Assembly (NCBI GenBank): GCA_963779885.1
Contig: CAWAAN010000005.1
Location: 20,554 to 84,553 of the forward strand
Source: an uncultured delta proteobacterium
GTDB taxonomy: Bacteria; Desulfobacterota; Desulfobacteria; Desulfobacterales; SG8-13
DNA: 64,000 nt
Direction: 5' to 3'
This document shows positions 2,483-26,043 of this stretch, piece by piece (the first letter of the stretch is position 1; the number at the start of each line of letters is the position of its first letter). Below the pieces are notes generated by a model, which did not search any database, was not told the DNA's origin, and saw only the letters and a program-made list of their open reading frames with translations. The position numbers were made by a program, and so were the translations under genes.

Positions 2483-4075
2483 ATGTACAAGGTAATGATT
2501 CGGGACGGCATGTCCCCGCTGGCGAAGGAAATTCTGGAGGCGACCGGTCAGATCGAGGTGGTGGTGGACAACGAGAAAGCCACCGGCAGCCCGGAGGCCC
2601 TGGCGGAAATTATCGACGGATTCGACGGATTGGCCATCCGCAGCGGAACCAAGGTGACCGAACCGGTCTTGCAGAAGGCCGGCCGCCTGAAGGTGATCGG
2701 CCGGGCCGGGGTCGGGGTGGACAACGTGGATGTGGCTGCCGCCACCGAACACGGCATTGTCGTCATGAACGCTCCGGGGGGCAACACCGTCACCACGGCC
2801 GAGCATGCCATCTCGCTCATGCTCTCGCTGGCCCGCAACATCCCCCAGGCCACCGCGTCGATGCGCGAGGGCAGATGGGAGAAAAAACTGCTCAGCGGCG
2901 TCGAAATCACCGGCAAGACCCTGGGTATCATCGGACTGGGCCATATCGGGCGCGTGGTGGCCGAAAGGGCCCTGGGCCTGAAGATGAAGGTGATCGCCGC
3001 CGATCCCTTTGTCAGCCCCGAGGCCGCCAAGCAGTTGCACGTCGAGCTGATGCCCCTGGAAGAGCTGCTGGCGGCGGCGGACTTCATCACGTTGCACGTC
3101 CCGCGCCTGAAGGAGACGATCGGCATGATCAAGGCGGAGACGATTGCCAGGATGAAACCGGGGGTGCGGATCATCAACTGCTCGCGCGGTGACATCATCA
3201 ACCTGGAGGATTTGTGGCAGGCGCTCGAAAGCGGGCATGTGAGCGGGGCGGCCCTGGACGTGTTGCCCAAAGAACCCCCCGAGCCGTCCCTGGCCATCTT
3301 GAAACACCCCCACGTGATTTTCACGCCGCACCTGGGCGCCAGTACCGATGAGGCCCAGAACAAGGTCGCCGAGATGATCGCCAGGCAGATAGCCGATTAC
3401 CTCATCGAGGGGATCATCACCAATGCGGTCAACTTCCCCTCGGTCTCCCACGAGGTCATGGAACAGATCCGGCCCCACATCGACCTGGCGGAGAAGATGG
3501 GGTCGCTGATGGGACAGCTGGTGCGCCAGCCCCACGATGTGACCATCACTTACAGCGGCGATGTGACCCGGTTCGATACCCGGCCCCTCACGCACGCGGT
3601 GTTAAAAGGTCTGCTGGGTGCGTTCACCGACAAGCCCGTCAATTACGTCAGTGCTCCGGCCATCGCGCGTGACAAGGGGATTCACGTGCGGGAAACCACC
3701 AGCCAGGCCAAGGCCGATTTCGCCAATCTGATCAAGGTCAAACTGGAGGGGCTGGACGAGGAAACCGACGAGATATGGGGGACGATCTTCAGCAAAAAGT
3801 ACGCCCGCATCGTGCGCATGGGCCGAATGTTTCTGGATGCGATCCCCGGCGGCTCGATGATCATCATCCAGAATATCGACCGGCCGGGCGTGATCGGCAA
3901 TGTGGGCACCACGCTCGGGCGCCACAATATCAACATCGGACGCTTTCAGCTGGGCCGCCGCGGCGATCGCGCGCTGTGCATGGTCAACATCGACACGCCG
4001 GCCGACGACCGTGTCCTGGAAGACATCCAGGCGCTGCCAAACATTCTTGCCGTCAACCAGGTGCACCTAAACTGA
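2483..4075 (+). CDS. serA: D-3-phosphoglycerate dehydrogenase
   Basis: GRAGVGVDNVD, GLGHIG, TPHLGAST, ASB and ACT C-terminal domains; AAGGAG RBS. Confidence 0.97.
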   Translation: MYKVMIRDGMSPLAKEILEATGQIEVVVDNEKATGSPEALAEIIDGFDGLAIRSGTKVTEPVLQKAGRLKVIGRAGVGVDNVDVAAATEHGIVVMNAPGGNTVTTAEHAISLMLSLARNIPQATASMREGRWEKKLLSGVEITGKTLGIIGLGHIGRVVAERALGLKMKVIAADPFVSPEAAKQLHVELMPLEELLAAADFITLHVPRLKETIGMIKAETIARMKPGVRIINCSRGDIINLEDLWQALESGHVSGAALDVLPKEPPEPSLAILKHPHVIFTPHLGASTDEAQNKVAEMIARQIADYLIEGIITNAVNFPSVSHEVMEQIRPHIDLAEKMGSLMGQLVRQPHDVTITYSGDVTRFDTRPLTHAVLKGLLGAFTDKPVNYVSAPAIARDKGIHVRETTSQAKADFANLIKVKLEGLDEETDEIWGTIFSKKYARIVRMGRMFLDAIPGGSMIIIQNIDRPGVIGNVGTTLGRHNINIGRFQLGRRGDRALCMVNIDTPADDRVLEDIQALPNILAVNQVHLN

Positions 4076-12268: not shown

Positions 12269-13768
12269 ATGACGCAAACCAGAAAAGAAATATCTTCCGT
12301 TCCTGCCGAGTCGCCCGGACCCGAGAAGATGGCGGCCATTTTCGAGACATGCGGCATTCATTTGGCGGGTTCGCAAATTCAACAGCTGTGGGCTTACCAC
12401 GTGATGCTGCGTCAGGGCAACCCGGAACTCAACCTGACGCGGGTGCATAACTTCGACAACATGGTCGTCAAGCTCTATGTCGATTCGATCCTGCCCGCTG
12501 ATCTGCTGCGGCTTCCCTCACCCTTGCTCGACTTGGGAACCGGCCCCGGTATGCCCGGCATTCCCCTCAAGATCTATCAGCCCCACCTGGAACTTCTTCT
12601 GGCCGAAAGCCGCCGTAAGCGGGTCGATTTTCTATCGCTGGTGGTCGATCGGCTGCGGCTGGAGGGTGTGCGCCTCATCGAAAGAAAAATCGACGTTGAT
12701 TTCGAGGAACCGGTGGCGGGCGTGATCACCCGGGCCGTGGAAACGATGGCCCGGACCCTGGAGCGCGTTCGCGGATGCCTGGCATGCGGCGGCCAGGTGA
12801 TCTTCATGAAAGGTCCGAACTGCGAGGCGGAATTGGACGAGATCCGGGAGCGGTGGTCCTCGGTCTACAAGCTGATCGAGGATCGGGCCTACATCATCCC
12901 CCACACCAGCCATCGGCGTCGCCTCGTGGTCGTGGAGCGTCTGGACGAGCCGGGCTACACCCGGCGCGCTGCGGCCACGGCCCGCCATGCGGTCATAAAA
13001 ATCGACAGCGAGAAAAACGCCCTCTTCAAAGACATGAAAAAGCTGCTCGGCGGCCGGGGAATCAAAAAGTCGGGCCGGGCCCTGCTGGCCGGCACGAAGT
13101 CGATCAGCGACGTGCTCGCGAGTTTTCCAGGGCGGTGCGCCGGCTGGATCAGTTCACATGACGGGCAGCCGCCGCCGGTCGATGCACCGCAGCGGCTCAC
13201 CTGGTTTCAACTGGCCCCGCGATTGTTCGAGATGCTCGATATTTTCGGGACCCATGCCCCGCTTCTTCTCCTGACGGTTCCGCCCGCCGATCCCTGGCAG
13301 GCGAGTGATGGTTTCGAGGCCGGCTGCAATCTTCTGGTTCCCTTTCAGGATCCGGAAAACGTCGGGGCCGTCATCCGCTCGGCGGCGGCCTTCGGCGTCG
13401 GCCAGGTCATCCTTCTGACTGAAAGCGCCCACCCGTTTCACCCCAAGTCCCTGCGCGCTTCCGGAGGAGCGGTCCTGTCCGTCAGGCTCCGGCAGGGCCC
13501 GTCCCTGAAGGAATTGCCGGCCGATCTGCCCATTATAGCGCTCTCGGCCGGGGGCGCTGATATTCGCCACACGGCATTTCCCCCATCCTTCGGATTGCTG
13601 ATCGGCCTCGAAGGGACCGGTTTGCCGGCGATCTGGCGCCAGACGGCCCGCCGCATCCCCATCCAGGCGGGGGTCGAGTCCTTGAACGCCGCAGCGGCTG
13701 CGGCCGTAGCGCTTTACGAGTGGTCACGTCAGGCGCATGCGGGCGGCACACAGACACGGCCAGCTTGA
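12269..13768 (+). CDS. rsmG: 16S rRNA m7G527 methyltransferase RsmG fused to a TrmH/SpoU-family methyltransferase
   Basis: N-terminal NLTR..YVDS..LDLGTGPGMPGIPL..ESRRKRVDFL; C-terminal QDPENVGAVIRSAAAFG and VESLNAAAA. Confidence 0.9.
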   Translation: MTQTRKEISSVPAESPGPEKMAAIFETCGIHLAGSQIQQLWAYHVMLRQGNPELNLTRVHNFDNMVVKLYVDSILPADLLRLPSPLLDLGTGPGMPGIPLKIYQPHLELLLAESRRKRVDFLSLVVDRLRLEGVRLIERKIDVDFEEPVAGVITRAVETMARTLERVRGCLACGGQVIFMKGPNCEAELDEIRERWSSVYKLIEDRAYIIPHTSHRRRLVVVERLDEPGYTRRAAATARHAVIKIDSEKNALFKDMKKLLGGRGIKKSGRALLAGTKSISDVLASFPGRCAGWISSHDGQPPPVDAPQRLTWFQLAPRLFEMLDIFGTHAPLLLLTVPPADPWQASDGFEAGCNLLVPFQDPENVGAVIRSAAAFGVGQVILLTESAHPFHPKSLRASGGAVLSVRLRQGPSLKELPADLPIIALSAGGADIRHTAFPPSFGLLIGLEGTGLPAIWRQTARRIPIQAGVESLNAAAAAAVALYEWSRQAHAGGTQTRPA

Positions 13769-13920
13769 GAACCTGAACCGGTGAAAATGATCACCATATC
13801 TATAATTGGACACCGCAGCACCCATAAACAACTGCGATTGAAATGACATGACTGCGGTTAGGCGCTGAACGAAAACAAGCGTTGGGTAGGTATTCGCAGC
13901 CAGAACGGGAAAACCGGCCA

Positions 13921-15693
13921 ATGACTGCCAACACGGATTGCAAAGAACTCGAAGTAAAATATCATAGCCTGGAAGTTGAGGCGGCGGCCTGCAAAGATGA
14001 AAATGAAGCGCTGCCATTGTATCGTTCACTGATCGAAAACGCGGGTGAGGCGATACTGGCGGCCCGCAACGACAGGATCATTTTCGCCAATCCCAGAGCG
14101 GAAGACCTGCTGGGATGGACGCAGCCTGATTTGGCGGCCCGGCCGATTGCGGAATATATCCACCCGGAAGACAGGGATACGGTAATGGCTCATTTCGAGA
14201 AGCTGCTCGGCAGCGGACCGGCCATCCGGGTGCCATTGTTCAGAATCCTCGATCGTTCGGGCACCATCAAATGGGTGAGGCTCAGGGCGGCGCTTTATGC
14301 GACGGATAGTGATCCGGCGGTCTTCTTTTATTTAACGGATATGACCCGTAGAAAAAAGGCCGAGGAAGAACTCCGTCGCAGCGAGGAGAAGTACCGGCGC
14401 GTTATCGATACGACCTCGGGAGGCTACATCCTCCTGGATCCAAATTATTTGATTATCGATGTGAACCGGTCTCTTTTGCAGATGCTGGGATGTGAGCGTG
14501 AGGAAATAACCGGTAAATTGCCGGATACGCTTTACGATAAAAAATCGGTCATGTTTTATTTCGCCAACCAGGACCATATCAGCTTCGAGGCGCGTTTCGC
14601 GGTGAAGGGCGGACGGGAAATTCCGCTTCTTTACAATCGCAGCACCTTGCGGAACGAAAAGGGGGTGATCACCGGATATGTGACCTTCCTGTCCGACCTG
14701 ACGGAATTGAAGCTCGTGCAGCAACGGCTGCGGCGCGCCGAAGAACGCTTCCGGCGCATGTACGAAAACGCCGTTCAAGGCATGTTCCAAAGCACGCTTT
14801 CCGGCCGGCTCCTGCACGCCAACCCTTCGTATGCCCGCATTCTGGGCTACGACTCCATCGCCGAGCTGCTGGCGACGGTTCATGACATATCCACGCTTTA
14901 CTTTCACCCTGAAATGCGGCAGCAAATGCTGGTCGACCTGCAAAGCAAGGGCCGCCTGACGAACTACGAAGTCAAACTCAAACGCAGGGACGGCCAGCCC
15001 ATATGGTTGTTGTTCAACGTGAGACTGACCGAAGACGATGACGACCAGTCCGTGGTGGAAGGGATCATCGTCGACAACACGGCCCGGAAGCTGGCGGAGG
15101 AAGAACTTCGCATGAGCGAGGAAAAATTCCGCCGTCTGTCGATTCTCGACAATCTGACCGGGCTTTATAACACCCGTTACATGTACAAAGCCCTGGCGGA
15201 TTTGATTGCCGAGAGCGAAGCTTCCGGAATGCCGTTTTCGTTGATTTTCCTGGACATGGACAATTTCAAGCATGTGGTCGACAACTACGGCCATCTAAAC
15301 GGCAGCCGGGCGCTGCAGGAAGTGGCCGCCACCATCCAAGGCGCGCTGGTGGAGCCGGCATTCGGCGTAGCCTACGGCGGCGATGAATTCGTCGTCGCGC
15401 TGCCCGGCTACACGAAAAAACAGGCGGCCAAAAAAGCCCGTGAAATCCAGGTCCGGATGTACGAAACGGTCTACCTCATCAGCCAGGGCTTCAAGGTGCG
15501 GCTCAAGGCGAGTTTCGGGATCGCCACTTTTCCCGAAGATGCCGCCGACCTCACGGCCCTGTTGGCCCTGGCCGACAAGGCCATGTTCGCCATTAAGAAG
15601 CGGGGCAAGAATGCGATCGGGATCACACCCTCGGTTGTCGCCGGAGAGAAACCGGGGACGTCGGCTGAAAACCGTCCGGCGGCCAAGCATTGA
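13921..15693 (+). CDS. Multi-PAS diguanylate cyclase
   Basis: Three PAS repeats, DNLTGLYN, DMDNFK, intact GGDEF; no RxxD I-site. Confidence 0.93.
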   Translation: MTANTDCKELEVKYHSLEVEAAACKDENEALPLYRSLIENAGEAILAARNDRIIFANPRAEDLLGWTQPDLAARPIAEYIHPEDRDTVMAHFEKLLGSGPAIRVPLFRILDRSGTIKWVRLRAALYATDSDPAVFFYLTDMTRRKKAEEELRRSEEKYRRVIDTTSGGYILLDPNYLIIDVNRSLLQMLGCEREEITGKLPDTLYDKKSVMFYFANQDHISFEARFAVKGGREIPLLYNRSTLRNEKGVITGYVTFLSDLTELKLVQQRLRRAEERFRRMYENAVQGMFQSTLSGRLLHANPSYARILGYDSIAELLATVHDISTLYFHPEMRQQMLVDLQSKGRLTNYEVKLKRRDGQPIWLLFNVRLTEDDDDQSVVEGIIVDNTARKLAEEELRMSEEKFRRLSILDNLTGLYNTRYMYKALADLIAESEASGMPFSLIFLDMDNFKHVVDNYGHLNGSRALQEVAATIQGALVEPAFGVAYGGDEFVVALPGYTKKQAAKKAREIQVRMYETVYLISQGFKVRLKASFGIATFPEDAADLTALLALADKAMFAIKKRGKNAIGITPSVVAGEKPGTSAENRPAAKH

Positions 15694-15718
15694 TCCCGTC
15701 GTTCAAGGCTGGAGTTTA

Positions 15719-15824
15719 TATAGGCTTTAAGATAGAGGTTTTGGCAAGGCCAGAGGGAGATGGCTGTATAAGTCATACGCCGCCGACCGATAACGCCGCC
15801 AAAACCTTTATCTTAAAGCCGATA
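15719..15824. repeat. 106-bp MITE-like element with 27-bp TIRs (family A, copy 1)
   Basis: TATAGGCTTTAAGATAGAGGTTTTGGC ... GCCAAAACCTTTATCTTAAAGCCGATA; homologous to 37505-37607. Confidence 0.85.
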
Positions 15825-16193
15825 GACCACCAGCGGCATAGCGGTCACGGCTATCAGCACCAGTGCCCAGAGCCTGCCCGCAAAAAGGTTGTAGTCATTT
15901 AAAAGCCTGCTCCACGGATGATGTACAGCGTAATGCCCGAAGAGAAATTCAAAGGCGACCGTCAAACACAGCCAGATGATGCCGACGGCCAGGGCCTGTC
16001 GTGAAGATTCGAGCGGCCATTTATCATTTAGAATAAAAGTATAGACGTAAAACAGGATGACCGCCGTCAGGGAAGACAACTGGTGAGCCGGCAGTTCCCT
16101 CATCCATTTGCCATAGGAATATTGGCGCAATACACCGTTCGCGATAGCGATAAAAACCATGGGTATCCAGGCGATGGTGTACTTCAGCAGCAT
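15813..16193 (-). CDS. Small 4-TM membrane protein, unknown function
   Basis: Hydrophobic 126 aa; last gene of the minus-strand operon; its stop lies inside the repeat TIR. Confidence 0.8.
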   Translation of the reverse strand: MLLKYTIAWIPMVFIAIANGVLRQYSYGKWMRELPAHQLSSLTAVILFYVYTFILNDKWPLESSRQALAVGIIWLCLTVAFEFLFGHYAVHHPWSRLLNDYNLFAGRLWALVLIAVTAMPLVVYRL

Positions 16194-16203
16194 TCGGTTT
16201 TTT

Positions 16204-16806
16204 TTAGCGACGGGTTTGGCGTTTGCGTTTCTTCACCGAGAAGCCGAATCGGCCGATGACACGCCCGAGCGCATAATACTGCCCGTGCGCGAAGGCCAGC
16301 AGGCCGGCCCTTTCAAGGCAAAGACGCCCCTTGGCATTTAAAAGCGAAGCGGTGACCTGGACCGCCACCACCTCGGCCGCAAACAGCGTGTGCGAGCCCA
16401 GTTTCAAGGTTTTCCGAACACGGCACTCGATGTTGAGCGGGCATTCCAGCACGATCGGGCATCCAACTGTCAAGGCCGCTGCCGGCGTGAGCGCGGTGTC
16501 CTTGAATTTATCCACATCGCGTCCGGAAACCATGCCGCACCAATCCGTCGCCTTCGCCTGCCGCAGGGATGGCACATTCACCACGAACTCTCCCAGTGTC
16601 TGAATGATCTCGTAAGAATACCGCTCGGGACGGACCGAGATCGAGAGCATGGGCGGGTCACTGCAGATGCTCCCGGTCCAGGCGATGGTGATCAGGTTTG
16701 GTTTCCATTCCTGCACTCCGCCGCAGCTCACGAGCACGGCCGGTAATGGGCACAGCAGGTTTCCGGGCTTCCAGGCCAGCTTTTCTAAGCGTGCGTGCTT
16801 TGCCAT
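16204..16806 (-). CDS. Flavin reductase family protein
   Basis: PLPAVLVSCG, NLITIAWTG, CPLNIECRV, GSHTLF. Confidence 0.9.
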   Translation of the reverse strand: MAKHARLEKLAWKPGNLLCPLPAVLVSCGGVQEWKPNLITIAWTGSICSDPPMLSISVRPERYSYEIIQTLGEFVVNVPSLRQAKATDWCGMVSGRDVDKFKDTALTPAAALTVGCPIVLECPLNIECRVRKTLKLGSHTLFAAEVVAVQVTASLLNAKGRLCLERAGLLAFAHGQYYALGRVIGRFGFSVKKRKRQTRR

Positions 16807-16819
16807 ATAATGTAGGATG

Positions 16820-18157
16820 TCACTCGTTCATCATCAGTTCGAGGGCATCTTCGGCGGCGGATTCGAGTACGCCGGCATGTGCGGCCAGGTCGAGAATTGT
16901 GATTCGCTCCCGGATCGTCCGGGCCCCGCAGGCGGAAAGCCGGAACTCGTCCGGGGTCAAATTCAGTGCCGAAAGCGTCATCGGGTATCCGGTTCGCCGA
17001 ATCCGTTCGAGAAAAACTCCGGCCGGTGGTACGGACGCCAGCAGCGGCGCGAGAGCCGGCCATCTGCGCGGCAGAAGTTCATCGAATTGGAGCAGCAGCT
17101 TTTTTTTCAGGTCAAAACGTTGGCGTACTTCGGGCGCGAATTGCCGCCAGATGGCCTGAAGGCCTTCAGTGTCGGCCATGAAACGCTTATAGGCCCCGGT
17201 TCGCAGCGCATGGACATCTGTGTCCCGCAGCTTTTCGTAGCAGACGGCGGACACGACGATGCCCGCGCCCACTTGCAGGCCGTGATGCTCAGGCACCCGC
17301 CCGGTCAACTCTGCGCGCATATCCCAGAAATGAGACAGGAGATGCTCTCCGCCGGAGGCCGGGGCACTGGAGCCGGCCAGGCTCATGGCCATGCCCGATA
17401 TCAAAAGGCCGCGCGTCAGGGCATCCACCGCCTCCTTTTCACCGGCGGCGATTTTCTCCGGCCGCTCGATATATAACGCCTCGGATTCGGCCACAATAGC
17501 GGACGGCAGGGCGCAGTATGAGTCGCCGAAAAGGAGGGATTCGATTTGCCAGTCGACATCCGATACCGATTTGGCCATCACGTCGCAGTAACCGGCCTGG
17601 CGAAGTTTCAGGGGTGCGTTTCGAAGGATTGCCGGCTGAATGTAAATCGCCTGCGGGGGAGCGGAAGGCAAGGTCCTTTTGACACCGGCCGCCTTTACGG
17701 CGGCGATCGAAGAGGTGTACCCGTTCATGGACGGCGCGGTGGGAACACACCAGTAAGGAATCCGCAGCTGGTGGGCCGTGTATTTTCCGAGGTCGTTGAT
17801 CGTGCCGGAGCCCACGGCAATAATCAGGGGACTGCCGTGGACGCGCTGTTTAATACCGGCGGCAAGATCGTCGGTCAGGTGGATATCTCCCGGCAGGGTG
17901 ACGACCCGGCAATCGACTGCGGCGGCGCTCAGGGCTTCGGCCACCGATTCGCCGGCGGCCTTATGGGTGTTTTCGTCATCTATGACAAGGGCCTGCCTTC
18001 CGCTCAGGAAGCTTTTTCCATCGGCCGCCAGAACCTGGAAGGCATCCTTGCCGGTGTAACTAAGGACATCGGGAACGCTGTGCGAGCCCCCGCAGGTGCA
18101 GCGTTGGGCGCACGCGGCCTGATCGACAAGCGCCTTTTTTTCGGGATGGATCATCAT
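16820..18157 (-). CDS. sn-glycerol-1-phosphate dehydrogenase (AraM/EgsA family)
   Basis: GSGTINDLGKY, VPTAPSMNGYTS, PASGGEHLLSHFWD, HHGLQVG. ATGA overlap with the ugpE stop. Confidence 0.88.
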   Translation of the reverse strand: MMIHPEKKALVDQAACAQRCTCGGSHSVPDVLSYTGKDAFQVLAADGKSFLSGRQALVIDDENTHKAAGESVAEALSAAAVDCRVVTLPGDIHLTDDLAAGIKQRVHGSPLIIAVGSGTINDLGKYTAHQLRIPYWCVPTAPSMNGYTSSIAAVKAAGVKRTLPSAPPQAIYIQPAILRNAPLKLRQAGYCDVMAKSVSDVDWQIESLLFGDSYCALPSAIVAESEALYIERPEKIAAGEKEAVDALTRGLLISGMAMSLAGSSAPASGGEHLLSHFWDMRAELTGRVPEHHGLQVGAGIVVSAVCYEKLRDTDVHALRTGAYKRFMADTEGLQAIWRQFAPEVRQRFDLKKKLLLQFDELLPRRWPALAPLLASVPPAGVFLERIRRTGYPMTLSALNLTPDEFRLSACGARTIRERITILDLAAHAGVLESAAEDALELMMNE

Positions 18158-19074
18158 TTTTCTCTTTCCACGAGTCCCTTAACGAACCAGCGTTGCATCA
18201 ACAGCACGACCAGAATGGGCGGCAGCATGACCAGCAGGGCGCCGGCCAGGGCAACATTCCAGTAGGGGACGTCGTCGATCTGGGGAATCAGGTGCTTCAA
18301 TCCAATGACGGCGGTGGTCATGTCCGGGTCGGTGGTGATGAGCAGGGGCCAGAGATATTGATTCCAGCCATAGACGAACTCGATCACCACCAAAGCGGCG
18401 ATGTTGGTTTTGGAGAGCGGCAGCAGGACGCGGTGAAAGAACTTCATGGGCGAGGCGCCGTCCAGCTTGGCCGCCTCGCACAGTTCTTCGGGTACGGTGA
18501 GAAAGAACTGCCGGAAAAGAAAGGTGCAGGTGGCCGAAGCCACCAGGGGCAGGATCAGGCCGGTATAGCTGTCCAGCAGGCTCCATTCCAGGCTGATGTC
18601 AAAATCGTTGCCCGTCCACCACTGCACGATGCCGCCGAGGTGCAGGGTGTCGATCAACCACTGCAAGGGACCGAAAAGGTTGGCGGCAATCTCGTATGTG
18701 GGGAGAATGCGGACTTCCACCGGCAGCATCAGGGTGCAAAAAACAGTGGCAAAAGCGACTTTTCGGAAGCGGTAGTCAAAATACACGATGGAGAAGGCAC
18801 CCAGCATGGAAACCACGATTTTGCCGATGGTGATTCCCGAGGCCATTACGAAGGAGTTCAGAAGCTGCCGACCGAGGTTGCCCCGTTCCCAAGCCGCCTG
18901 GATGTTGACCCAGAACTGGTCACCCGGCACGAGGGGCATCGGGACTTTGGAAACTTCCTCTATGGGGAGCGATGCCGCCACCAAGGTGTAGAAGATGGGA
19001 AAACAGACGATGCAGATTCCCAGCATCAGAGTTACGTAAGTCAGCGTGTCGAGAATGGGTGTTCGTTCAACCAT
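18154..19074 (-). CDS. ugpE: Glycerol-phosphate ABC transporter permease
   Basis: LPVEVRILPT, SATCTFLFRQFF, EAAKLDGA, QRWFVKGLVEREK. Confidence 0.9.
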   Translation of the reverse strand: MVERTPILDTLTYVTLMLGICIVCFPIFYTLVAASLPIEEVSKVPMPLVPGDQFWVNIQAAWERGNLGRQLLNSFVMASGITIGKIVVSMLGAFSIVYFDYRFRKVAFATVFCTLMLPVEVRILPTYEIAANLFGPLQWLIDTLHLGGIVQWWTGNDFDISLEWSLLDSYTGLILPLVASATCTFLFRQFFLTVPEELCEAAKLDGASPMKFFHRVLLPLSKTNIAALVVIEFVYGWNQYLWPLLITTDPDMTTAVIGLKHLIPQIDDVPYWNVALAGALLVMLPPILVVLLMQRWFVKGLVEREK

Positions 19075-19077
19075 GAA

Positions 19078-19968
19078 TCATATCGTATACTGGACTTTGC
19101 GTTCCACGTAACGGAACTGCAGCACGGTGATGGTGACGATCAAGGCCATCAGGGCCACGGACTGGGCCGCTGAAGAACCCAGGTTCAGCCCGATAAAACC
19201 ATCTTGATAGACCTTGTAGACGAGGGTGGTGGTGGCGCCGCCCGGACCGCCCTGGGTCACCGTGTGGATGACACCAAAGGTTTCGAAAAAGGCGTAAATG
19301 ACGTTCATTACCATGAGAAAGAACAAGGTCGGTGAGAGCAGCGGCAGGGTGATCGCCCAGAAGCGTCGGAAAGGCCCGGCGCCGTCCATGGCCGCGGCCT
19401 CGATCAAGGAGTGGGGAACGGCCTGCAGACCGGCCATGAAAAAGACAAAGTTGTAGCTGATTTGCTTCCAGCCGCTGGCCAGTACCACCATGACGAAGGC
19501 ATCGGTTCCGTTGAGCACCGGGTTCCAGTCGATGCCGAGGCGGCGTTTCAAAAAGAGGGCCACCACGCCGAACGAAGGGTGCAGCAGAAAGAGCCACAGG
19601 ATGCCGGAAATGGCCGGAGCAACGGCATAGGGCCAGACCAGCAGCGTGCGGATCGGCGCCTTGGCGATCAGTGCCCGGTTGGCCATGGTGGCGATCAGCA
19701 GACCGGTCAGGATGGCGAGTACGGCGACGGCGAAGCTGAAGACCAGGGTGATGCCGACGGACTTCAGGTAGAGTGGATCGGTAAAAATGTCGATGAAATT
19801 ATCCAGCCAGACGAACCGGCTGCGCTGGCCGAAAGGGTCGCTGAGCATCACCGATTGGAGCAGACCCTGGGCGGCCGGCCAGTAAAAAAACGTCAGTGTC
19901 ACCAGGATCTGGGGTGTGATCAGCAGGTAGGCTAGGCGTTTGGATTTGAAATGGGAGCGCTTGATCAT
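19078..19968 (-). CDS. ugpA: Glycerol-phosphate ABC transporter permease
   Basis: DPFG..FVWLDNF, WKQISYNFVFF, EAAAMDGAGP, QFRYVERKVQY. Confidence 0.92.
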   Translation of the reverse strand: MIKRSHFKSKRLAYLLITPQILVTLTFFYWPAAQGLLQSVMLSDPFGQRSRFVWLDNFIDIFTDPLYLKSVGITLVFSFAVAVLAILTGLLIATMANRALIAKAPIRTLLVWPYAVAPAISGILWLFLLHPSFGVVALFLKRRLGIDWNPVLNGTDAFVMVVLASGWKQISYNFVFFMAGLQAVPHSLIEAAAMDGAGPFRRFWAITLPLLSPTLFFLMVMNVIYAFFETFGVIHTVTQGGPGGATTTLVYKVYQDGFIGLNLGSSAAQSVALMALIVTITVLQFRYVERKVQYTI

Positions 19969-20027
19969 AGGAACCAGGAAATGAGGTGAAGCTCGCTCAT
20001 CGATTCGTATTCGAGGACGAATTTATG

Positions 20028-20054
20028 GCCAAAATCTTTATCTTAAAGCCGATA
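20028..20054. repeat. Solo TIR of family A element
   Basis: GCCAAAATCTTTATCTTAAAGCCGATA, 1 mismatch to 15798-15824. Confidence 0.8.
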
Positions 20055-20151
20055 GAGACTCGAAAATCGAAACCCGTTACCGGTGGTGGTTCAAGGGCTG
20101 CGGGCGTTTCATTGGAGGTTGCGCAGGCCGGGTTCAGGATAACGGTACAGT

Positions 20152-20204
20152 CCACAGTGCATCCGGCACGGGCCTTAAAGACACCCGTGTCGGACACCCT
20201 GTGG
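20152..20204 (-). terminator. Stem-loop downstream of ugpB (terminator or mRNA stabiliser)
   Basis: TCCGGCACGGG/CCCGTGTCGGA stem extended by CCACAG/CTGTGG. Confidence 0.55.
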
Positions 20205-20211
20205 GCTTTAG

Positions 20212-21540
20212 CTACTTTTTATAGGTTTTCTCGAACTTGCGCAACTCATCGTTACCGCGCTGAACGGCCGAGTCCAGGGCCTGCTGGGGCGTCTTTCCGC
20301 CGTTCCAGACCAGTTCCAGCTCCTCGTTGATGATGTTGCGGATCTGGATGAAATACCCCAGGCGCAGCCCGCGCGAGTTAACGGTGGGCTTCCGGCGCAT
20401 CAACTGTTGGATGCCTACTTCCTGATAGGGGTATTCTTTGTAGAAGCCCTTAGCTTTGAGGGACTCATAGGCCGAAACGGTGATGGGCAGGTAGCCGGTC
20501 TCGATATGCCACAGCTCCTGCATGTCGTTCTGGGCCAGGAAATTGAGAAATGCGGCCACGCCCTTGTAGTCCTTCTTTGGCAACCCGTTCATCACCCACA
20601 GCGATGCGCCGCCGATGATGCTGTTCTGGGGGGTTTTCATGGAAGCCTCCACCGGCAGCGGCGCCGCATCCCAGTTGAACTTGGCGTTTTGTTTGATGGC
20701 GCCGATGGCGCTGATGGAATCCATCAGGATGGCGGCATCCTGGGAAAAAAAAGCCGCCTCGGGACCCTGGTATTTCTGGCCGACGTAAGAAAACCGGTTG
20801 TCGGCCATCCAGGATTTCAGCAAGGCGATGTGGCTGACCACTTGCGGATTGTTGATGGTCAACTCGGTGTCGAGACCCTCGTAACCGTTGGCCCTGGTGG
20901 CGAAGGGCAGGTCGTGAATGGCGCTGTAGTTTTCGATCTGTACCCAGGATGGCCAGGCGGTGACCAGCCCCTTTTTGACGCCGGAAGCGACCAGCTTGGC
21001 CGTCAGCTCACCCAATTGATCCCAGGTGATCGGCTCGGTTCTGGAAAGCGGCGCGATGCCGGCCTGCTTGAACTGGTCCTTGTTGTAGAACATCACCGGC
21101 GTGGAGGAGTTGAAGGGCATCGACTGCAGGTTGCCCTTCGCGTCCACGTAATAGGACAGTACGGGCTGAAGGTAGAGACTCCAGTCGATCTTGTACCCCT
21201 GGTCCGCCATCAGTTTGTAGACCGGGTAGATGGCGCCGGACAACATCATGGTCTGGGTGCCGACCTCGAAAGATTGGAGAATATGGGGCTGTTTCTTGGC
21301 ACGGTAGGCCGCGACCCCTGCGTTGACGGTTTCGTCGTAATCGCCCTTGTTGGTCTCGATGACGACGAAATCATTCTGCGACGCATTGAAGGCGGCTGCC
21401 AGTTTCTTGACCGTTTCACCGCGGGCACCGCGCATGGCGTGCCACCAGTGAATCTCGGTGGGTGCGGCCAGGGCGCTACCGGTCCATGCCAACAAAGCGG
21501 CCATGACTGTAACGAGCCATAATCGGATGCTTCTTCTCAT
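20212..21540 (-). CDS. ugpB: Glycerol-phosphate ABC transporter substrate-binding protein
   Basis: Signal peptide, EIHWWHAM, FEVGTQTMM, PFNSSTP, NSIIGGASLW, TGYLPIT. Confidence 0.92.
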   Translation of the reverse strand: MRRSIRLWLVTVMAALLAWTGSALAAPTEIHWWHAMRGARGETVKKLAAAFNASQNDFVVIETNKGDYDETVNAGVAAYRAKKQPHILQSFEVGTQTMMLSGAIYPVYKLMADQGYKIDWSLYLQPVLSYYVDAKGNLQSMPFNSSTPVMFYNKDQFKQAGIAPLSRTEPITWDQLGELTAKLVASGVKKGLVTAWPSWVQIENYSAIHDLPFATRANGYEGLDTELTINNPQVVSHIALLKSWMADNRFSYVGQKYQGPEAAFFSQDAAILMDSISAIGAIKQNAKFNWDAAPLPVEASMKTPQNSIIGGASLWVMNGLPKKDYKGVAAFLNFLAQNDMQELWHIETGYLPITVSAYESLKAKGFYKEYPYQEVGIQQLMRRKPTVNSRGLRLGYFIQIRNIINEELELVWNGGKTPQQALDSAVQRGNDELRKFEKTYKK

Positions 21541-21889
21541 GCCTGCTTCCTCCTTGATTTATAACGGTTAAAAACGGCGACTACGGAACCTTCGGAAGTG
21601 GCAGGAATGCACCCCCGGGTCCCTTGTAACCGAACGATGCCGCCGGCGGTTTCGCGCGGCAAAATTACCGTAGACGAAGTGAAAAAATTACTCAAGCCTT
21701 TTAACTTTCTGAAACCTGTCATCGAACGGCCGTCAGGAGCTGCTCCGGCAGGCTGCCGGCGGACGGTTTTCCGATGCTGTCGCCGGCTTGAGAACTTGAA
21801 TGAAAGCTTGACGCCGGCGGCGAAAGCATGATTTGGATGGGGCTCAAAAGAAGGGCTCGTTGACGGGTTTTTTAAGGCAGGAATGACGG

Positions 21890-22987
21890 ATGGCAAATGT
21901 CGTACTGAAAAATGTTGTCAAGCGCTTCGGTAAAACCGAAGTCGTTCATGGGATCGACCTGGACGTCGATGACAAGGAATTTGTCGTGCTGGTGGGCCCT
22001 TCGGGTTGCGGCAAATCAACCGTCCTGCGGCTCATTGCCGGTCTGGAAGAGATTACCGAGGGCGAAATATGGATCGATGATCGGATCGTCAACGATGTGG
22101 CACCCAAGGATCGAAAAACGGCCATGGTGTTCCAGAATTATGCCCTGTATCCTCATATGAACGTTTTTAAGAACATGGCCTTCGGTTTGACGCTGGCCAA
22201 GAGACCCCGGGCGGAAATCGAAGAACGGGTCCAGGCTGCCGCAACCATGCTGGAGCTGCAGGACCTGCTGCACCGCAAACCGCACCAACTCTCCGGCGGT
22301 CAGCGGCAGCGGGTGGCCATGGGGCGTGCAATCGTTCGAAATCCTTCCGTTTTTCTCTTCGATGAACCACTCTCGAACCTGGATGCCAAACTGCGGACGC
22401 AGATGCGGACCGAGATCAAACAGCTCCATCACAAGGTGTCTACGACGATCATCTACGTCACCCACGATCAGGTGGAGGCCATGACGCTGGCCGACCGGAT
22501 TGTGGTCATGCGCAACGGGCGCATCGAGCAGATCGGAGAGCCGATCGAGATTTTCCAGAGGCCTCAGAATACGTTTGTTGCCGGCTTTATCGGGTCACCG
22601 CCCATGAACCTGGCAGCGGCCAGAACCAGGCGCTCCGAGCAGAAATTTAAACTGGTTTTTAACGACAGGCTTCAAATACCCGTTCCCCCGAAACCGGAGG
22701 TTCTTTTAGAGGACGATGTCGACGTGATTATGGGGCTTCGTACCGAAGACATCGTTCCGGCCGATGGGTCCGAAACCTTTCTGACCCGTTGGACGGTGCC
22801 CGGCCTTGTGGATGTCGTCGAACCCTTGGGCAGCGAGACCAACCTTCACATGGACTTGCAGGGCATAAGGGTTATCGGCAAGTGTGACGGGCGGCGGCCG
22901 GTCCGCGTGGGCGAATCGATTGAAATGGCGCTGAATCTCGAGCATCTCCACATTTTTGATGCGGCAACAACCCAGGCCCTTTATTGA
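21890..22987 (+). CDS. ugpC: Sugar/glycerol-phosphate ABC ATPase
   Basis: GPSGCGKS, LSGGQRQRVAMGRA, DEPLSNLDAKLR, TOBE tail; divergent from ugpB. Confidence 0.9.
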   Translation: MANVVLKNVVKRFGKTEVVHGIDLDVDDKEFVVLVGPSGCGKSTVLRLIAGLEEITEGEIWIDDRIVNDVAPKDRKTAMVFQNYALYPHMNVFKNMAFGLTLAKRPRAEIEERVQAAATMLELQDLLHRKPHQLSGGQRQRVAMGRAIVRNPSVFLFDEPLSNLDAKLRTQMRTEIKQLHHKVSTTIIYVTHDQVEAMTLADRIVVMRNGRIEQIGEPIEIFQRPQNTFVAGFIGSPPMNLAAARTRRSEQKFKLVFNDRLQIPVPPKPEVLLEDDVDVIMGLRTEDIVPADGSETFLTRWTVPGLVDVVEPLGSETNLHMDLQGIRVIGKCDGRRPVRVGESIEMALNLEHLHIFDAATTQALY

Positions 22988-23004
22988 GACGGGGCTGATG
23001 GCAA

Positions 23005-23236
23005 CCCAACCCCGGTCTTTCCTTTTCAATTTCTGGTTGGTTTCTTTCAGTCAGGAAGGGCTTGTCATACTTCATCAAACTTTTTCCCAAATGTCCCAGG
23101 TTGACCGGTTTTTGGGTATCAAAAGCACGCCCTCGGGTGTCTTTTTTATGTAAACTTCATGTCCCTCGAATCGATAGGATTTCGGCAATCGGACGGCCTG
23201 ACTCCGCCCGTTGATGAAGATTTTTGCTGTTTCCAT
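23005..23236 (-). pseudogene. vapB: VapB-type (AbrB/MazE) antitoxin, frameshifted; toxin absent
   Basis: METAKIFINGRSQAVRLPKSYRF stops at 23075 after an A5 run. The natural-looking C-terminus SLMKYDKPFLTERNQPE continues in another frame. Confidence 0.8.
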
Positions 23237-23304
23237 AATTTTCCCCACTCTCTTTCACGTTGATTGCTAGAAATTATTCACCATTTGGTATGTATGTCAA
23301 CATA

Positions 23305-23886
23305 TCAATTTTTGACGTGATCGGGATACAATTTCCTGGCGCACTCGGAACACAGGCCGTGGCTGAAGGAGGCCTCGGAGTGTCTGGTCACATAGTCCTC
23401 TATTTGCTCGTAGTCGCCCGCCTTGTTTCTGATTTTCTTGCAGGCCGCGCATATCGGAAGAATACCTTCCAACACTTTCACTTTCTTCTGCAGCTGCCGG
23501 GTCTGGTCCGCCGTCCGGTCAATGAGATAAACATAAAATATCAAGGCCGATACGATCAGAAGGGCATTGACGTGGGCGAGGTAGAGCGGCTGGGTTTCGT
23601 GCCATAAAAAGTGAAAGACGATTCGCATGAGAGGAAGGAAGATGGCGATTAAATAGGCCAGTGTTTTTTGATTCCGCCAGGCGGCCATCCCCGCCGGAAG
23701 AATGTAGAGTATGGGAAAGCGGATCGCTTTTCCCGAAAGGTAGTCGACCAGCAGAACGATCGCCGCCACCCCGACACAGCACGCGGTGGTCTTTTTGACA
23801 TACACCTCTTCAATGAACTTGAAAGCCCCGTTCAATCTCCCTGTGTCCTTTTTTCCAAAAAAAAATGCGCGACAGCGATCAATCAA
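23305..23886 (-). CDS. Membrane protein with C-terminal Cys/His motif domain
   Basis: About 4 TMs, a coiled coil, then LEGILPICAACKKIR...FSHGLCSEC. Start uncertain. Confidence 0.8.
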   Translation of the reverse strand: MIDRCRAFFFGKKDTGRLNGAFKFIEEVYVKKTTACCVGVAAIVLLVDYLSGKAIRFPILYILPAGMAAWRNQKTLAYLIAIFLPLMRIVFHFLWHETQPLYLAHVNALLIVSALIFYVYLIDRTADQTRQLQKKVKVLEGILPICAACKKIRNKAGDYEQIEDYVTRHSEASFSHGLCSECARKLYPDHVKN

Positions 23887-24066
23887 GATAAAGAATACAC
23901 AATTTGAAGATTTATGTCACTCGCTGTTCCAGCGGCCCGGTACGGTGAGCGCGGCTTGACGCTCGAATCGGCCGCACTATATTAAGACTTTAAAAAAGTG
24001 GGTCAATTCACCGTCTTGTCGATGTAACAGGATGGATCATAACACGCACGGCAAGGAGAATTTATT

Positions 24067-25008
24067 GTGACCAAGATCGAGCGCATCGAGGCGGTGCTGA
24101 GCGGCCGCGAACCGGACCGCCCGCCGCTGTCGCTGTGGTATCACTTCGGGGTGCAGCACGGCTCGGGGGAACAGTTTGCGCGGTTGAGCCTGGAGTTCTT
24201 CGATCACTATGATGTCGATTTCCTCAAGGTCATGAACGACTATTTTTACCCGTCGCCGCCGGGATTGACGCGGATCGCCTCGGCGCGGGACCTGCGGCAC
24301 CTGGGGCCGCTGACGGTGGAAGAAGCGGCCTGGAGCCGCCAATTCAGGGCCCTGGAACTGATCGCCGGGCAGCTGCAGGGGCGCGCCTTTTTCATCGACA
24401 CCGTCTTCGATCCCTGGCAGACCATCCGGCGCATGGCGGGTGAGAACATGCCAACGTTGATGGCCGAGGCACCGTCGGCGCTTCTGGATGCGCTCGAGGT
24501 GGTGGCCGACAACCTGATCGCCTACTGCAAGAAATCACTCGCCCTGGGGTCGGCCGGCATGTTCATGTCGGTGCCGGCGGCATCTGAAATCGTCGCCCGG
24601 GATGACTTCATGAAATTCGTAAAACAGCCGGCGCAAAAGGTCTTTGCGGCCATCGCCGGCATGGGGCGCATGAACACGGCCCACATTCACGGGCAGGACC
24701 TCTTTTTCGACGATTGCCTCGACTTTCCGGTGCCGATTTTCAACTGGTGGGACCGCGGGCCGAACGGGCCTTCCCTGGCGGAGGTGAAGCTGAAGACCGG
24801 CGCCTGCGTCATGGGTGGCATCGATCAGACCATCGTGGCGCGCACCAGCCCGGCCTTTTTGGCGGACCACGTGCGCCAAGGGCTCCGGCTGGGGGGTAAA
24901 GACCGGTTTTTCATCGCCAACGGGTGCAGTATCGACACCTGGGCCAACCCGGCCGCAATCCGGAGCATCGTGACGGCTGTGCGTTCCGATCGAAACGATC
25001 GCTCATAA
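24067..25008 (+). CDS. Uroporphyrinogen decarboxylase (URO-D/CIMS) superfamily protein
   Basis: PDRPPLSLWYHF, VDFLKVM, AHIHG, VMGGIDQ, FFIANGCS. TTGACG-16-TATATT upstream (23956-23983). Confidence 0.8.
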   Translation: MTKIERIEAVLSGREPDRPPLSLWYHFGVQHGSGEQFARLSLEFFDHYDVDFLKVMNDYFYPSPPGLTRIASARDLRHLGPLTVEEAAWSRQFRALELIAGQLQGRAFFIDTVFDPWQTIRRMAGENMPTLMAEAPSALLDALEVVADNLIAYCKKSLALGSAGMFMSVPAASEIVARDDFMKFVKQPAQKVFAAIAGMGRMNTAHIHGQDLFFDDCLDFPVPIFNWWDRGPNGPSLAEVKLKTGACVMGGIDQTIVARTSPAFLADHVRQGLRLGGKDRFFIANGCSIDTWANPAAIRSIVTAVRSDRNDRS

Positions 25009-25032
25009 CACATACCTGTAGAAAGAGGCCTC

Positions 25033-26043
25033 ATGGACACATCCCTCAAACATCTCGAGACGGCCACCTTCGCCGGCGGCTGTTTCTGGTGCTCCGAATC
25101 GGATTTTACCACCGTGGACGGTGTTCACAAGGTGGTTTCCGGGTACACCGGCGGCTCTACCGCCAACCCGTCCTACCAGGAGGTGTGCTCCGGCACCACC
25201 GGGCATTTTGAAGCGGTCCAGGTTTTTTACGATCCCCAAAAAGTGACCTACCGGCAATTGCTGGATGCCTTCTGGCGTCATGTGGACCCCACCGACAGCG
25301 GCGGGCAGTTTGTCGACCGCGGGCCGCAATACCGCACGGCCCTTTTTTATCACAACGCGGAGCAAAAGCGGCAGGCCGAAGCCTCGAAAGCCGAGCTGTC
25401 AGGATCGGGGCGGTTTAGCCGGGCGGTGGTCACCCCCATTTTGCCGCTGACCACTTTTTACAAGGCTGAAGACCATCACCAGGAATACCATAAAAAGAGT
25501 CCGGTTCGCTACCAGGCCTACCGTTCGGCTTCCGGACGGGATCGGTTCATCGAAAAGATATGGCGCCGCGATGCCGCCCCGGACGAAAGGCCGGAGAATA
25601 AGAAGCGCTATGCCAAGCCCGATGAGGCACAGCTGCAGCGGTCAATGACGCCGCTGCAATACGACGTGGCCCGCAAGGACGCCACCGAACCGCCGTTCAA
25701 AAACGAATTCTGGGACAACCACGAGCCGGGAATCTATGTCGACATCGTCTCCGGCGAGCCCTTGTTCAGTTCCACCGACAAATTCGATTCCGGCACCGGT
25801 TGGCCGAGCTTCATAAAGCCCATCGAGCCGGCGCACATTGTCGAGAAAAAGGACCGCAGCCTGTTCGTGACGCGGACCGAGGTTCGCAGCCGGCACGGCG
25901 ATTCACATCTCGGGCATGTGTTTCCCGATGGTCCGCGGCCAACAGGCCTGCGCTACTGCATCAATTCGGCGTCGTTGCGGTTCATCCCCAAGGAGGATCT
26001 GGCCAAAGAAGGGTACGGTGAATACCTGAAGCTGTTTAGATAG
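25033..26043 (+). CDS. msrAB: Peptide methionine sulfoxide reductase MsrA/MsrB fusion
   Basis: AGGCFWC (MsrA); [17 protein letters not shown] and RYCINS (MsrB). Confidence 0.97.

Follow-up and report, generated by a model that had tools for sequence, protein, structure and literature searches.

Why does a ugp operon, which encodes an ATP-binding cassette (ABC) importer for glycerol phosphate, also encode a dehydrogenase related to those acting on sn-glycerol-1-phosphate (G1P)? The question is raised by a 64,000-nucleotide stretch of contig CAWAAN010000005.1 from an uncultured delta proteobacterium (assembly GCA_963779885.1), the whole of which we call the window. On its minus strand, ugpB (20212-21540; periplasmic glycerol-phosphate-binding protein), ugpA (19078-19968; permease) and ugpE (18154-19074; permease) are followed by a gene for a 445-amino-acid (aa) AraM-type homologue of G1P dehydrogenase (G1PDH), referred to here as dh (16820-18157), and ugpC (21890-22987; ATP-binding subunit) lies divergently on the plus strand. 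All four Ugp proteins score above curated NCBIfam equivalog or subfamily cut-offs: UgpB against NF008211 (484.7 bits; cut-off 411), UgpA against NF007852 (347.3; 335), UgpE against NF008210 (342.3; 297) and UgpC, with its ABC_tran, OB_MalK and TOBE_2 domains, against NF008653 (502.5; 432). The dehydrogenase matches the Fe-ADH_2 family, PF13685, at 98.8 bits (cut-off 28). The start codon of dh (ATG, 18157-18155) overlaps the stop codon of ugpE (TGA, 18156-18154) in an ATGA arrangement, the minus strand reading gaa aaa tga tga tcc across 18162-18148. The initial annotation had described a ugpB-ugpA-ugpE-dehydrogenase-flavin reductase-membrane protein series with a divergent ugpC and had seen in the overlap a sign of translational coupling; open reading frame (ORF) listing and family scans confirmed the gene set, and the minus-strand sequence the overlap.

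The answer we favor, at a probability of about 60%, is that the Ugp importer would admit glycerol phosphate non-stereoselectively, the coupled AraM-type dehydrogenase would convert G1P to dihydroxyacetone phosphate (DHAP), and sn-glycerol-3-phosphate (G3P) would be handled by GlpAB and GlpD-like enzymes. Probably, then, the operon lets this bacterium feed on G1P. Ugp import followed by G1P oxidation had already been proposed; it is now the best-supported reading, strengthened by a conserved context of importer, glp and glycerophosphodiesterase (GDPD) genes, while we infer that the substrate of the enzyme is G1P, and likewise its stereochemistry and oxidative direction.

The closest solved relative of the dehydrogenase in phmmer searches is AraM of B. 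subtilis (9H4X; E = 1.3e-39), the entry for which is titled as a Ni2+-dependent G1P dehydrogenase. The archaeal G1PDHs 4RGQ, 4RFL and 5FB3 follow at about 1e-21, and glycerol dehydrogenases at 1e-8 or weaker. When an AlphaFold2 model (predicted local distance difference test score, 89.6; built on a 17-sequence alignment) was compared with solved structures by Foldseek, 9H4X again ranked first (TM, 0.77/0.86; root-mean-square deviation, 2.5 Å; 26% identity). Alignments show that D192, the segment PASGGEH272xxSH276 and H292-G are common to the window protein, AraM and the G1PDHs of M. jannaschii and P. calidifontis. By analogy with the glycerol dehydrogenase/G1PDH family, an Asp and two His of this D192/H272/H276/H292 region presumably serve as metal ligands. 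K196 and the C-terminal R416-x-R418 are shared with AraM, and the stretch SMNGYTSS aligns with AraM SVDGFTS. Across 73 aligned sequences, the active-site positions are invariant both in clade U, as we term the proteins at least 50% identical to the query (44/44), and in more distant sequences (29/29); R416 and R418 are each present in 43 of the 44 clade-U sequences, with one gap. Because AraM is the best match in both sequence and fold, and because these motifs are conserved, sequence and predicted structure, an Fe-ADH_2/DHQS-like fold, place the dehydrogenase in the AraM/EgsA family of G1PDHs (EC 1.1.1.261), and its AraM-like pocket is intact.

The N terminus of the protein (residues 16-26) carries a separate motif, C20-x-C22-G...H26, which precedes the part alignable with AraM (where the alignment begins at residue 52) and with the archaeal G1PDHs. 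C20, C22 and H26 occur without exception in the 44 sequences of clade U and in 24-25 of the 29 distant relatives; C16 occurs in 28 of the 44. The C20-x-C22...H26 motif may form a small structural metal site.

As to the binding protein, window UgpB is closest among solved structures to 9LFF/9LFJ (phmmer E = 4e-123) and next to E. coli UgpB, 4AQ4 (E = 3e-122). The former show UgpB from Phaeobacter sp. MED193 in complex with either G1P or G3P, for which its dissociation constants are 2.36 and 0.80 µM, respectively; a ugpB gpxB double mutant grows on neither compound (PMC12718374). Its reported ligand contacts are Tyr64, Glu88, Ser143, Trp188, Trp191, Ser266, Gly303, Tyr342 and Arg393 (PMC12718374), and all nine are identical in window UgpB in the phmmer alignment to 9LFF. 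The contacts were mapped by hand, 20 being added to the native number to give the chain index, and 9/9 positions showed the type of residue expected. Since the Phaeobacter orthologue binds both enantiomers and the nine contacts are conserved, window UgpB, the only copy in its genome, would be expected to take up glycerol phosphate without discriminating between them.

What the rest of the genome (4.67 Mb; 88% complete) offers to the two enantiomers differs. The window lies on the contig that we call C5, and elsewhere on this contig glpA-glpB directly precede glpK (C5:161050-165526). GDPD matches occur on contigs C12 and C3 only, that on C12 adjoining a glpD/glpA-like gene; the ugp locus thus has no ugpQ, as had been remarked, and the remark does not extend to the genome as a whole, which has these two GDPD genes, or to one related locus with the order ugpB-ugpA-ugpE-dh-GDPD (L009). 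Neither PcrB/GGGP synthase nor an AfuA-like binding protein was found in this 88% complete genome. With glpAB and GlpD-like genes present and PcrB absent, G3P appears to be catered for and a known consumer of G1P to be missing. Archaeal-type lipid synthesis was considered for this genome and set aside for want of PcrB.

These findings bear on whether the enzyme could run in the other direction, reducing DHAP to G1P for a lipid or polymer, with its place in the ugp operon reflecting mere regulatory convenience, such as co-expression under phosphate scarcity. The equilibrium favors DHAP reduction. AraM, the closest solved relative, is itself a biosynthetic enzyme whose gene belongs to the ara operon (PMC5059525); in Streptomyces, araM shows synteny with tagGH and with genes for CDP-alcohol phosphatidyltransferases (PMC13118837); and PlsY and PlsC are described as able to use G1P (PMC13400652). 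Against a biosynthetic role stand the failure to find PcrB/GGGP synthase in the 88% complete genome, the lack of any linked biosynthetic gene in clade-U loci with annotated flanks, and the catabolic nature of the conserved partners (importers, G3P dehydrogenases and GDPD). We regard such a role as improbable.

Is the linkage of ugp and dh conserved? We assembled loci from two sources: nine came from a pattern scan of species-representative genomes, and the remainder were the best 80 of 546 confirmed relatives from a profile scan of metagenome contigs. Neighbors were scored by tblastn with the window proteins and with annotated reference neighbors. Fifty-four loci (L001-L009 and L021-L065) belong to clade U, and the dehydrogenases of the other 35 are 30-42% identical to the query. 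Directly upstream of dh, ugpE was found in 17 of the 54 clade-U loci (L001-L005, L008, L009, L021, L045, L047, L050-L054, L060 and L063), which bears out the proposed linkage; ugpB, ugpA and the divergent ugpC are also present in these 17 wherever the contig reaches far enough. Seven of the nine genome loci have the full order, ugpC divergent from ugpB-ugpA-ugpE-dh, and ugpE directly precedes dh in 10 of the 45 metagenome clade-U loci, where the contig extends that far. The divergent ugpC is kept in L001-L004, L008, L009, L047, L051-L053 and L060; the ugp genes of L052 and L060 were matched in pieces. Among ugp-linked loci, identity of the dehydrogenase falls as low as 50%. The linkage of ugp and dh is more than chance.

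Two of these loci, L008 and L009, lie about 1 Mb apart on one contig, giving a single Desulfobacterales metagenome-assembled genome (MAG) a second ugp-dh copy. In L008 the ugpC match (residues 89-365) abuts the ugpB match (residues 144-441) at 3316/3319, and ugpA, ugpE and dh look intact by tblastn; a deletion seems to have taken the 5' ends of both ugpC and ugpB together with the region between them.

It could be argued that dh is a neutral insertion downstream of ugpE with no functional link to the importer, given that clade U appears in none of the 400 other sampled genomes of the phylum and that the genes following dh vary between close relatives. Such an account would have to accommodate the start-stop overlap of ugpE and dh, synteny that persists in three or more separate lineages at identities as low as 50%, and the repeated placement of dh beside other organophosphate importers, glpAB, glpD or GDPD genes. 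We consider it highly improbable.

Direct neighbors of the distant relatives (30-42% identical) are heterogeneous in 15 loci, and none has Ugp or GDPD, indicating that the link to an importer is specific to clade U. Two distant members 34-35% identical to the query (L088:5050-7290 and L089:5112-7296) are divergent from lgt, which we treat as a lead only. A further one, L098, has a CUT1 transporter nearby on the opposite strand, and its near-copy L097 has the same neighbors.

Within clade U, ugp is not the only partner. An AfuA/PhnS2-type organophosphate ABC importer adjoins dh in 22 of the 54 loci: on the same strand with dh first (12 loci) or last (six), convergently (three), or, in L025, 4 kb away with glpAB-HAD between (one). 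Its components are a binding protein of 432 aa, a fused double permease and an ATPase; the best models for them, PhnS2, PhnU2 and PhnT2, all fall short of cut-off. Phosphate-transport genes, DUF47 and PiT-like, are frequent downstream. In L034 and L040, which show neither a Ugp nor an Afu-like importer, DUF47 (TIGR00153) and PHO4/PiT phosphate-transporter genes are directly upstream of dh. The nearest solved relatives of the binding protein are 6WCE, a pyridoxal-5-phosphate binding protein, and 4R72 (AfuA); the version encoded in L031, at L031:7496-8794, also matches 8X1A, 4R6Y, 6FJL and 6HHB. According to the respective abstracts, AfuABC transports hexose and heptose phosphates, and P5PA imports the active form of vitamin B6.

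Other loci join dh to genes for enzymes of glycerol phosphate metabolism or to further importer genes. In L025, dh is divergent from glpA-glpB-HAD (GlpA, 565.8 bits against a cut-off of 552.8; GlpB, 591.4 against 345), and the glpA-glpB pair of the window's genome is 59% and 53% identical to this one. In L058, a PhnE-type permease gene (284.9 bits; cut-off 216.7), dh and a glpD-like gene follow one another on one strand. The last of these reaches 293 bits against a cut-off of 360, the gene being interrupted by the contig end; on the other side, the permease is all that is visible of an importer, as the contig ends before any binding-protein gene. Identity of the L058 dehydrogenase is 56-59% with members of clade U, against 38-39% with the distant group. 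In L046, dh follows an Opp/Dpp-type ABC ATPase gene. Further, GDPD is fused to the dehydrogenase in four of the best 150 representatives from a protein search (P0162, P0165, P0195 and P0248; 679-689 aa). A domain scan placed a full GDPD domain at the N terminus and the dehydrogenase at the C terminus in all four, P0162 having also been compared with NCBIfam. These fusions constitute independent evidence that the family acts on glycerol phosphate released from diesters.

That protein search, a HMMER search of 1.84 billion representatives, gave 3529 matches at E <= 0.001 and 917 at E <= 1e-30; after clustering at 50%, clade U is represented by one full-length sequence, P0030. Our maximum-likelihood tree comprises 73 sequences (that of the window and those of 72 loci), leaving out 17 of the 89 loci (including L035, L045, L046, L057, L058, L060 and L063) in which the dehydrogenase match was shorter than 380 residues, interrupted or without a start codon. 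Clade U is monophyletic (SH-aLRT 100), and the six-sequence group containing the window is entirely Ugp-linked. The Ugp label requires six changes on the tree, at least three of them on well-supported branches, and the Afu label seven, at least four well supported, suggesting that dh has switched importer partner several times. Partner switching with an invariant pocket fits a tie to the imported compound, not to one transporter.

Whether that compound is free G1P is a fair question. The enzyme might instead oxidize G3P itself, a glycerophosphodiester (for example, glycerophosphoglycerol) or some other phosphorylated polyol brought in by the importer. Ugp systems also import glycerophosphodiesters. 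The variety of partners, namely AfuA/PhnS2-like systems, a PhnE-type permease and the Opp/Dpp-type ATPase, would suit a different substrate, as would the failure of the dehydrogenase to reach the cut-off of the curated G1PDH model; the GDPD fusions would fit a diester-linked substrate as well. On the other hand, the residues common to AraM and the archaeal G1PDHs are invariant family-wide, UgpB retains every G1P/G3P contact, and G3P already has enzymes of its own, GlpAB and a GlpD-like one, in the genome, as well as glp genes beside dh itself in L025 and L058. A different substrate is unlikely in our judgment.

Returning to import and oxidation of G1P, we envisage the following sequence of events. 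A ugp operon would have gained a cytoplasmic AraM-type dehydrogenase gene, translationally coupled to ugpE. UgpBAEC would bring in glycerol phosphate of either hand; G3P would pass to GlpAB and GlpD-like flavoenzymes in the cytoplasm, and G1P, which is not expected to be a substrate of those enzymes, would be converted to DHAP by the NAD(P)- and metal-dependent dehydrogenase. The DHAP could enter glycolysis or gluconeogenesis or, via GpsA, become G3P for lipid synthesis. By conversion of G1P to DHAP, carbon and phosphorus would both be retained and G1P would not build up.

As to where the G1P might come from, the initial annotation had looked to archaeal lipids, and nothing ties it to that origin. 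Phosphatidylglycerol head groups and lipoteichoic acid would be further sources of G1P, and the cell's own Lgt by-product could be another. Archaeal lipid backbones are given as a source in PMC12718374, and the leaving group of bacterial Lgt is likewise G1P, which has been proposed to exit to the periplasm (PMC4728403).

More broadly, the enzymes of clade U may represent the missing cytoplasmic step of a general bacterial pathway using both enantiomers of glycerol phosphate. In such a pathway, the importer could be Ugp, AfuA-like or Phn/Gpx-like; GlpAB/GlpD would take G3P and the AraM-type dehydrogenase G1P, both yielding DHAP, with GpsA completing an inversion of G1P to G3P; the G1P would derive from archaeal and bacterial sources; and the GDPD-dehydrogenase fusions would be G1P-releasing phosphodiesterases. 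We offer this extension tentatively, at somewhat less than even odds.

Several observations weigh against the import and oxidation of G1P as the role of the operon. First, the dehydrogenase scores 159.2 bits against the curated G1PDH equivalog NF002022, below the cut-off of 413. The same model exceeds its cut-off in no more than three of the 14 control genomes, though it matches in B. subtilis and four archaea, and for that reason its failure here is weak evidence about activity. Second, NAD(P)+-linked oxidation of glycerol phosphate is uphill at standard conditions, which is why G3P catabolism normally proceeds via flavoenzymes. Third, given that AraM is biosynthetic within the ara operon and that Streptomyces araM lies in teichoic-acid-type clusters, linkage to a transporter is no proof of catabolism. 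Fourth, neither a Ugp nor an Afu-like importer was seen in 15 of the 54 clade-U loci. In thirteen of these, the contig ends within 1 kb of dh on one or both sides (including L046 and L058, which adjoin other ABC-importer genes); L022 has no informative neighbor, and L006 has full flanks and no importer. Fifth, glycerol phosphate is no more than a putative ligand of the Afu-like importer, and the L031 binding protein, tried as a relative of GpxB, gave no match to 9LF9/9LFB at E <= 0.001. Sixth, because many loci are near-duplicates (L027/L030, L038/L039, L050/L051 and L023/L026 are near-copies), the locus counts overstate the number of independent events. Finally, a survey of the phylum gave a match at E <= 1e-20 in 3 of 401 genomes, the window's own and two only 32-33% identical, and no clade-U member was found in the other 400 genomes sampled, so that the survey contributed no further synteny.

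The importer-free locus L006, from a Desulfarculaceae genome, has two tandem Fe-ADH_2 paralogues (L006:7001-9728; 53% and 29% identical to the query) beside a sulfatase gene.

Downstream of dh, the window encodes a flavin-reductase-like protein (16204-16806, minus strand; PF01613, Flavin_Reduct, 115.1 bits), whose start lies 13 bp beyond the dh stop, and then, after 10 bp, a 126-aa ORF with hydrophobic segments (15813-16193, minus strand) that has no Pfam or NCBIfam match. Both had been counted as members of the module. They follow dh only in the window, L001 and L005, whose dehydrogenases are 87-88% identical, and four further matches to the flavin reductase lie elsewhere in the genome as paralogues. 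In L002-L004 (74-81% identical), dh is instead followed by a gene for a protein of 387-412 aa (L002:8671-9834, L003:8286-9524 and L004:8433-9596), of which the C-terminal part alone matches, to a 4Fe-4S dicluster domain, the first ~280 residues having no match; other lineages have unrelated genes in this position. Neither the flavin reductase nor the 126-aa ORF belongs to the conserved unit. It is speculation that either the flavin reductase or the 4Fe-4S protein might re-oxidize NAD(P)H and so pull the uphill oxidation forward.

The 349-bp region between the divergent ugpC and ugpB (21541-21889) contains a block of approximately 50 nucleotides (~21661-21712) that is near-identical in the window and L001-L004, with flanks that diverge in the alignment. 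This block is a candidate operator, promoter or other control region for ugpC and ugpB. No Pho box or other known site was recognized in it. An Rfam scan of 15000-24500 gave no match at E <= 0.1, and a scan of 15500-23400 for promoters and terminators returned both at the level of shuffled controls, with no clear terminator at the dh/flavin reductase junction. The DNA data sets carrying this stretch are freshwater-sediment and soil metagenomes from one study, one of which may be its source, with no RNA data set listed, and the nearest named relatives of the window are MAGs of uncultured Desulfobacterales or 'delta proteobacterium'. Outside the operon, the flanks at 13882-15693 and 24067-26043 (both plus strand) are ordinary, encoding a triple-PAS GGDEF diguanylate cyclase, a URO-D/MtaA-like methyltransferase homologue and an MsrA-MsrB fusion. 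A single 499-aa ORF at 12269-13768 (plus strand) combines RsmG/GidB 16S rRNA methyltransferase and SpoU-type 2'-O-methyltransferase domains, a fusion kept in L001 and L005.

We compared the operon with the systems that it most resembles. In E. coli the operon, for an ABC importer of G3P and glycerophosphodiesters, has the order ugpBAECQ. The window shares with that type the four Ugp proteins, each above its cut-off, and a UgpB close to 4AQ4; it differs in that ugpC is divergent instead of following ugpE, ugpQ is missing from the locus, and dh follows ugpE with an ATGA overlap. The GlpQ/UgpQ plus GlpD/GlpABC route resembles the one proposed here in that glycerol phosphate is released or imported and then oxidized to DHAP, and the window's genome has the genes for it (GDPD with a GlpD-like gene, and glpA-glpB-glpK). 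The dehydrogenase, however, is of an unrelated fold, would use NAD(P) and a metal instead of flavin and quinone, and is expected to take the opposite enantiomer. In B. subtilis, the araNPQ ABC-importer genes presumably stand beside araM in the ara operon. AraM (EgsA) matches the window enzyme best in sequence and fold and shares its metal-ligand and substrate-pocket motifs, including the C-terminal R-x-R, at only 26% identity by Foldseek; G1P from AraM goes to PcrB for ether-lipid synthesis (PMC5059525, PMC4244643), whereas no PcrB was found in the window's genome and the partners of dh are catabolic.

The closest parallel is provided by Phaeobacter sp. MED193, whose UgpB and GpxB are, by the account of PMC12718374, the only described G1P transporters. 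Window UgpB is nearest to the Phaeobacter protein and keeps its nine contacts, and the PhnE-type permease of L058 belongs to PhnCDE, the transporter family to which GpxB is assigned (PMC12718374). The main text of that report names transporters only, whereas the window operon includes a candidate enzyme; moreover, no relationship to GpxB was detectable for the AfuA/PhnS2-like system, the commonest alternative partner of dh.

The first description of G1P uptake by bacteria dates from as late as December 2025, in a report that states as unknown how marine microbes use archaea-derived G1P (PMC12718374). An earlier phylogeny of G1PDH noted deltaproteobacterial homologues and reported no informative gene organization (PMC5059525). 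In the literature that we searched, no paper linked a G1P dehydrogenase to ugp, to the use of glycerophosphodiesters or to G1P catabolism. What appears to be new, then, is that a ugp operon carries its own candidate enzyme for the other enantiomer. It is one case of a broader theme in anaerobic Desulfobacterota from sediments and soils, in which an organophosphate importer is paired with an AraM-type dehydrogenase.

A single enzyme and a single binding protein would be enough to put the question to a direct test. If the dehydrogenase does oxidize imported G1P, the operon would name the catabolic step missing from bacterial G1P recycling, and dh beside an organophosphate importer would be a genomic marker with which to trace that recycling in anoxic sediments and soils. 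Part of the bacterial AraM-like family (917 representatives at E <= 1e-30) would then be recast as catabolic enzymes, and not as relics of archaeal-type lipid synthesis.

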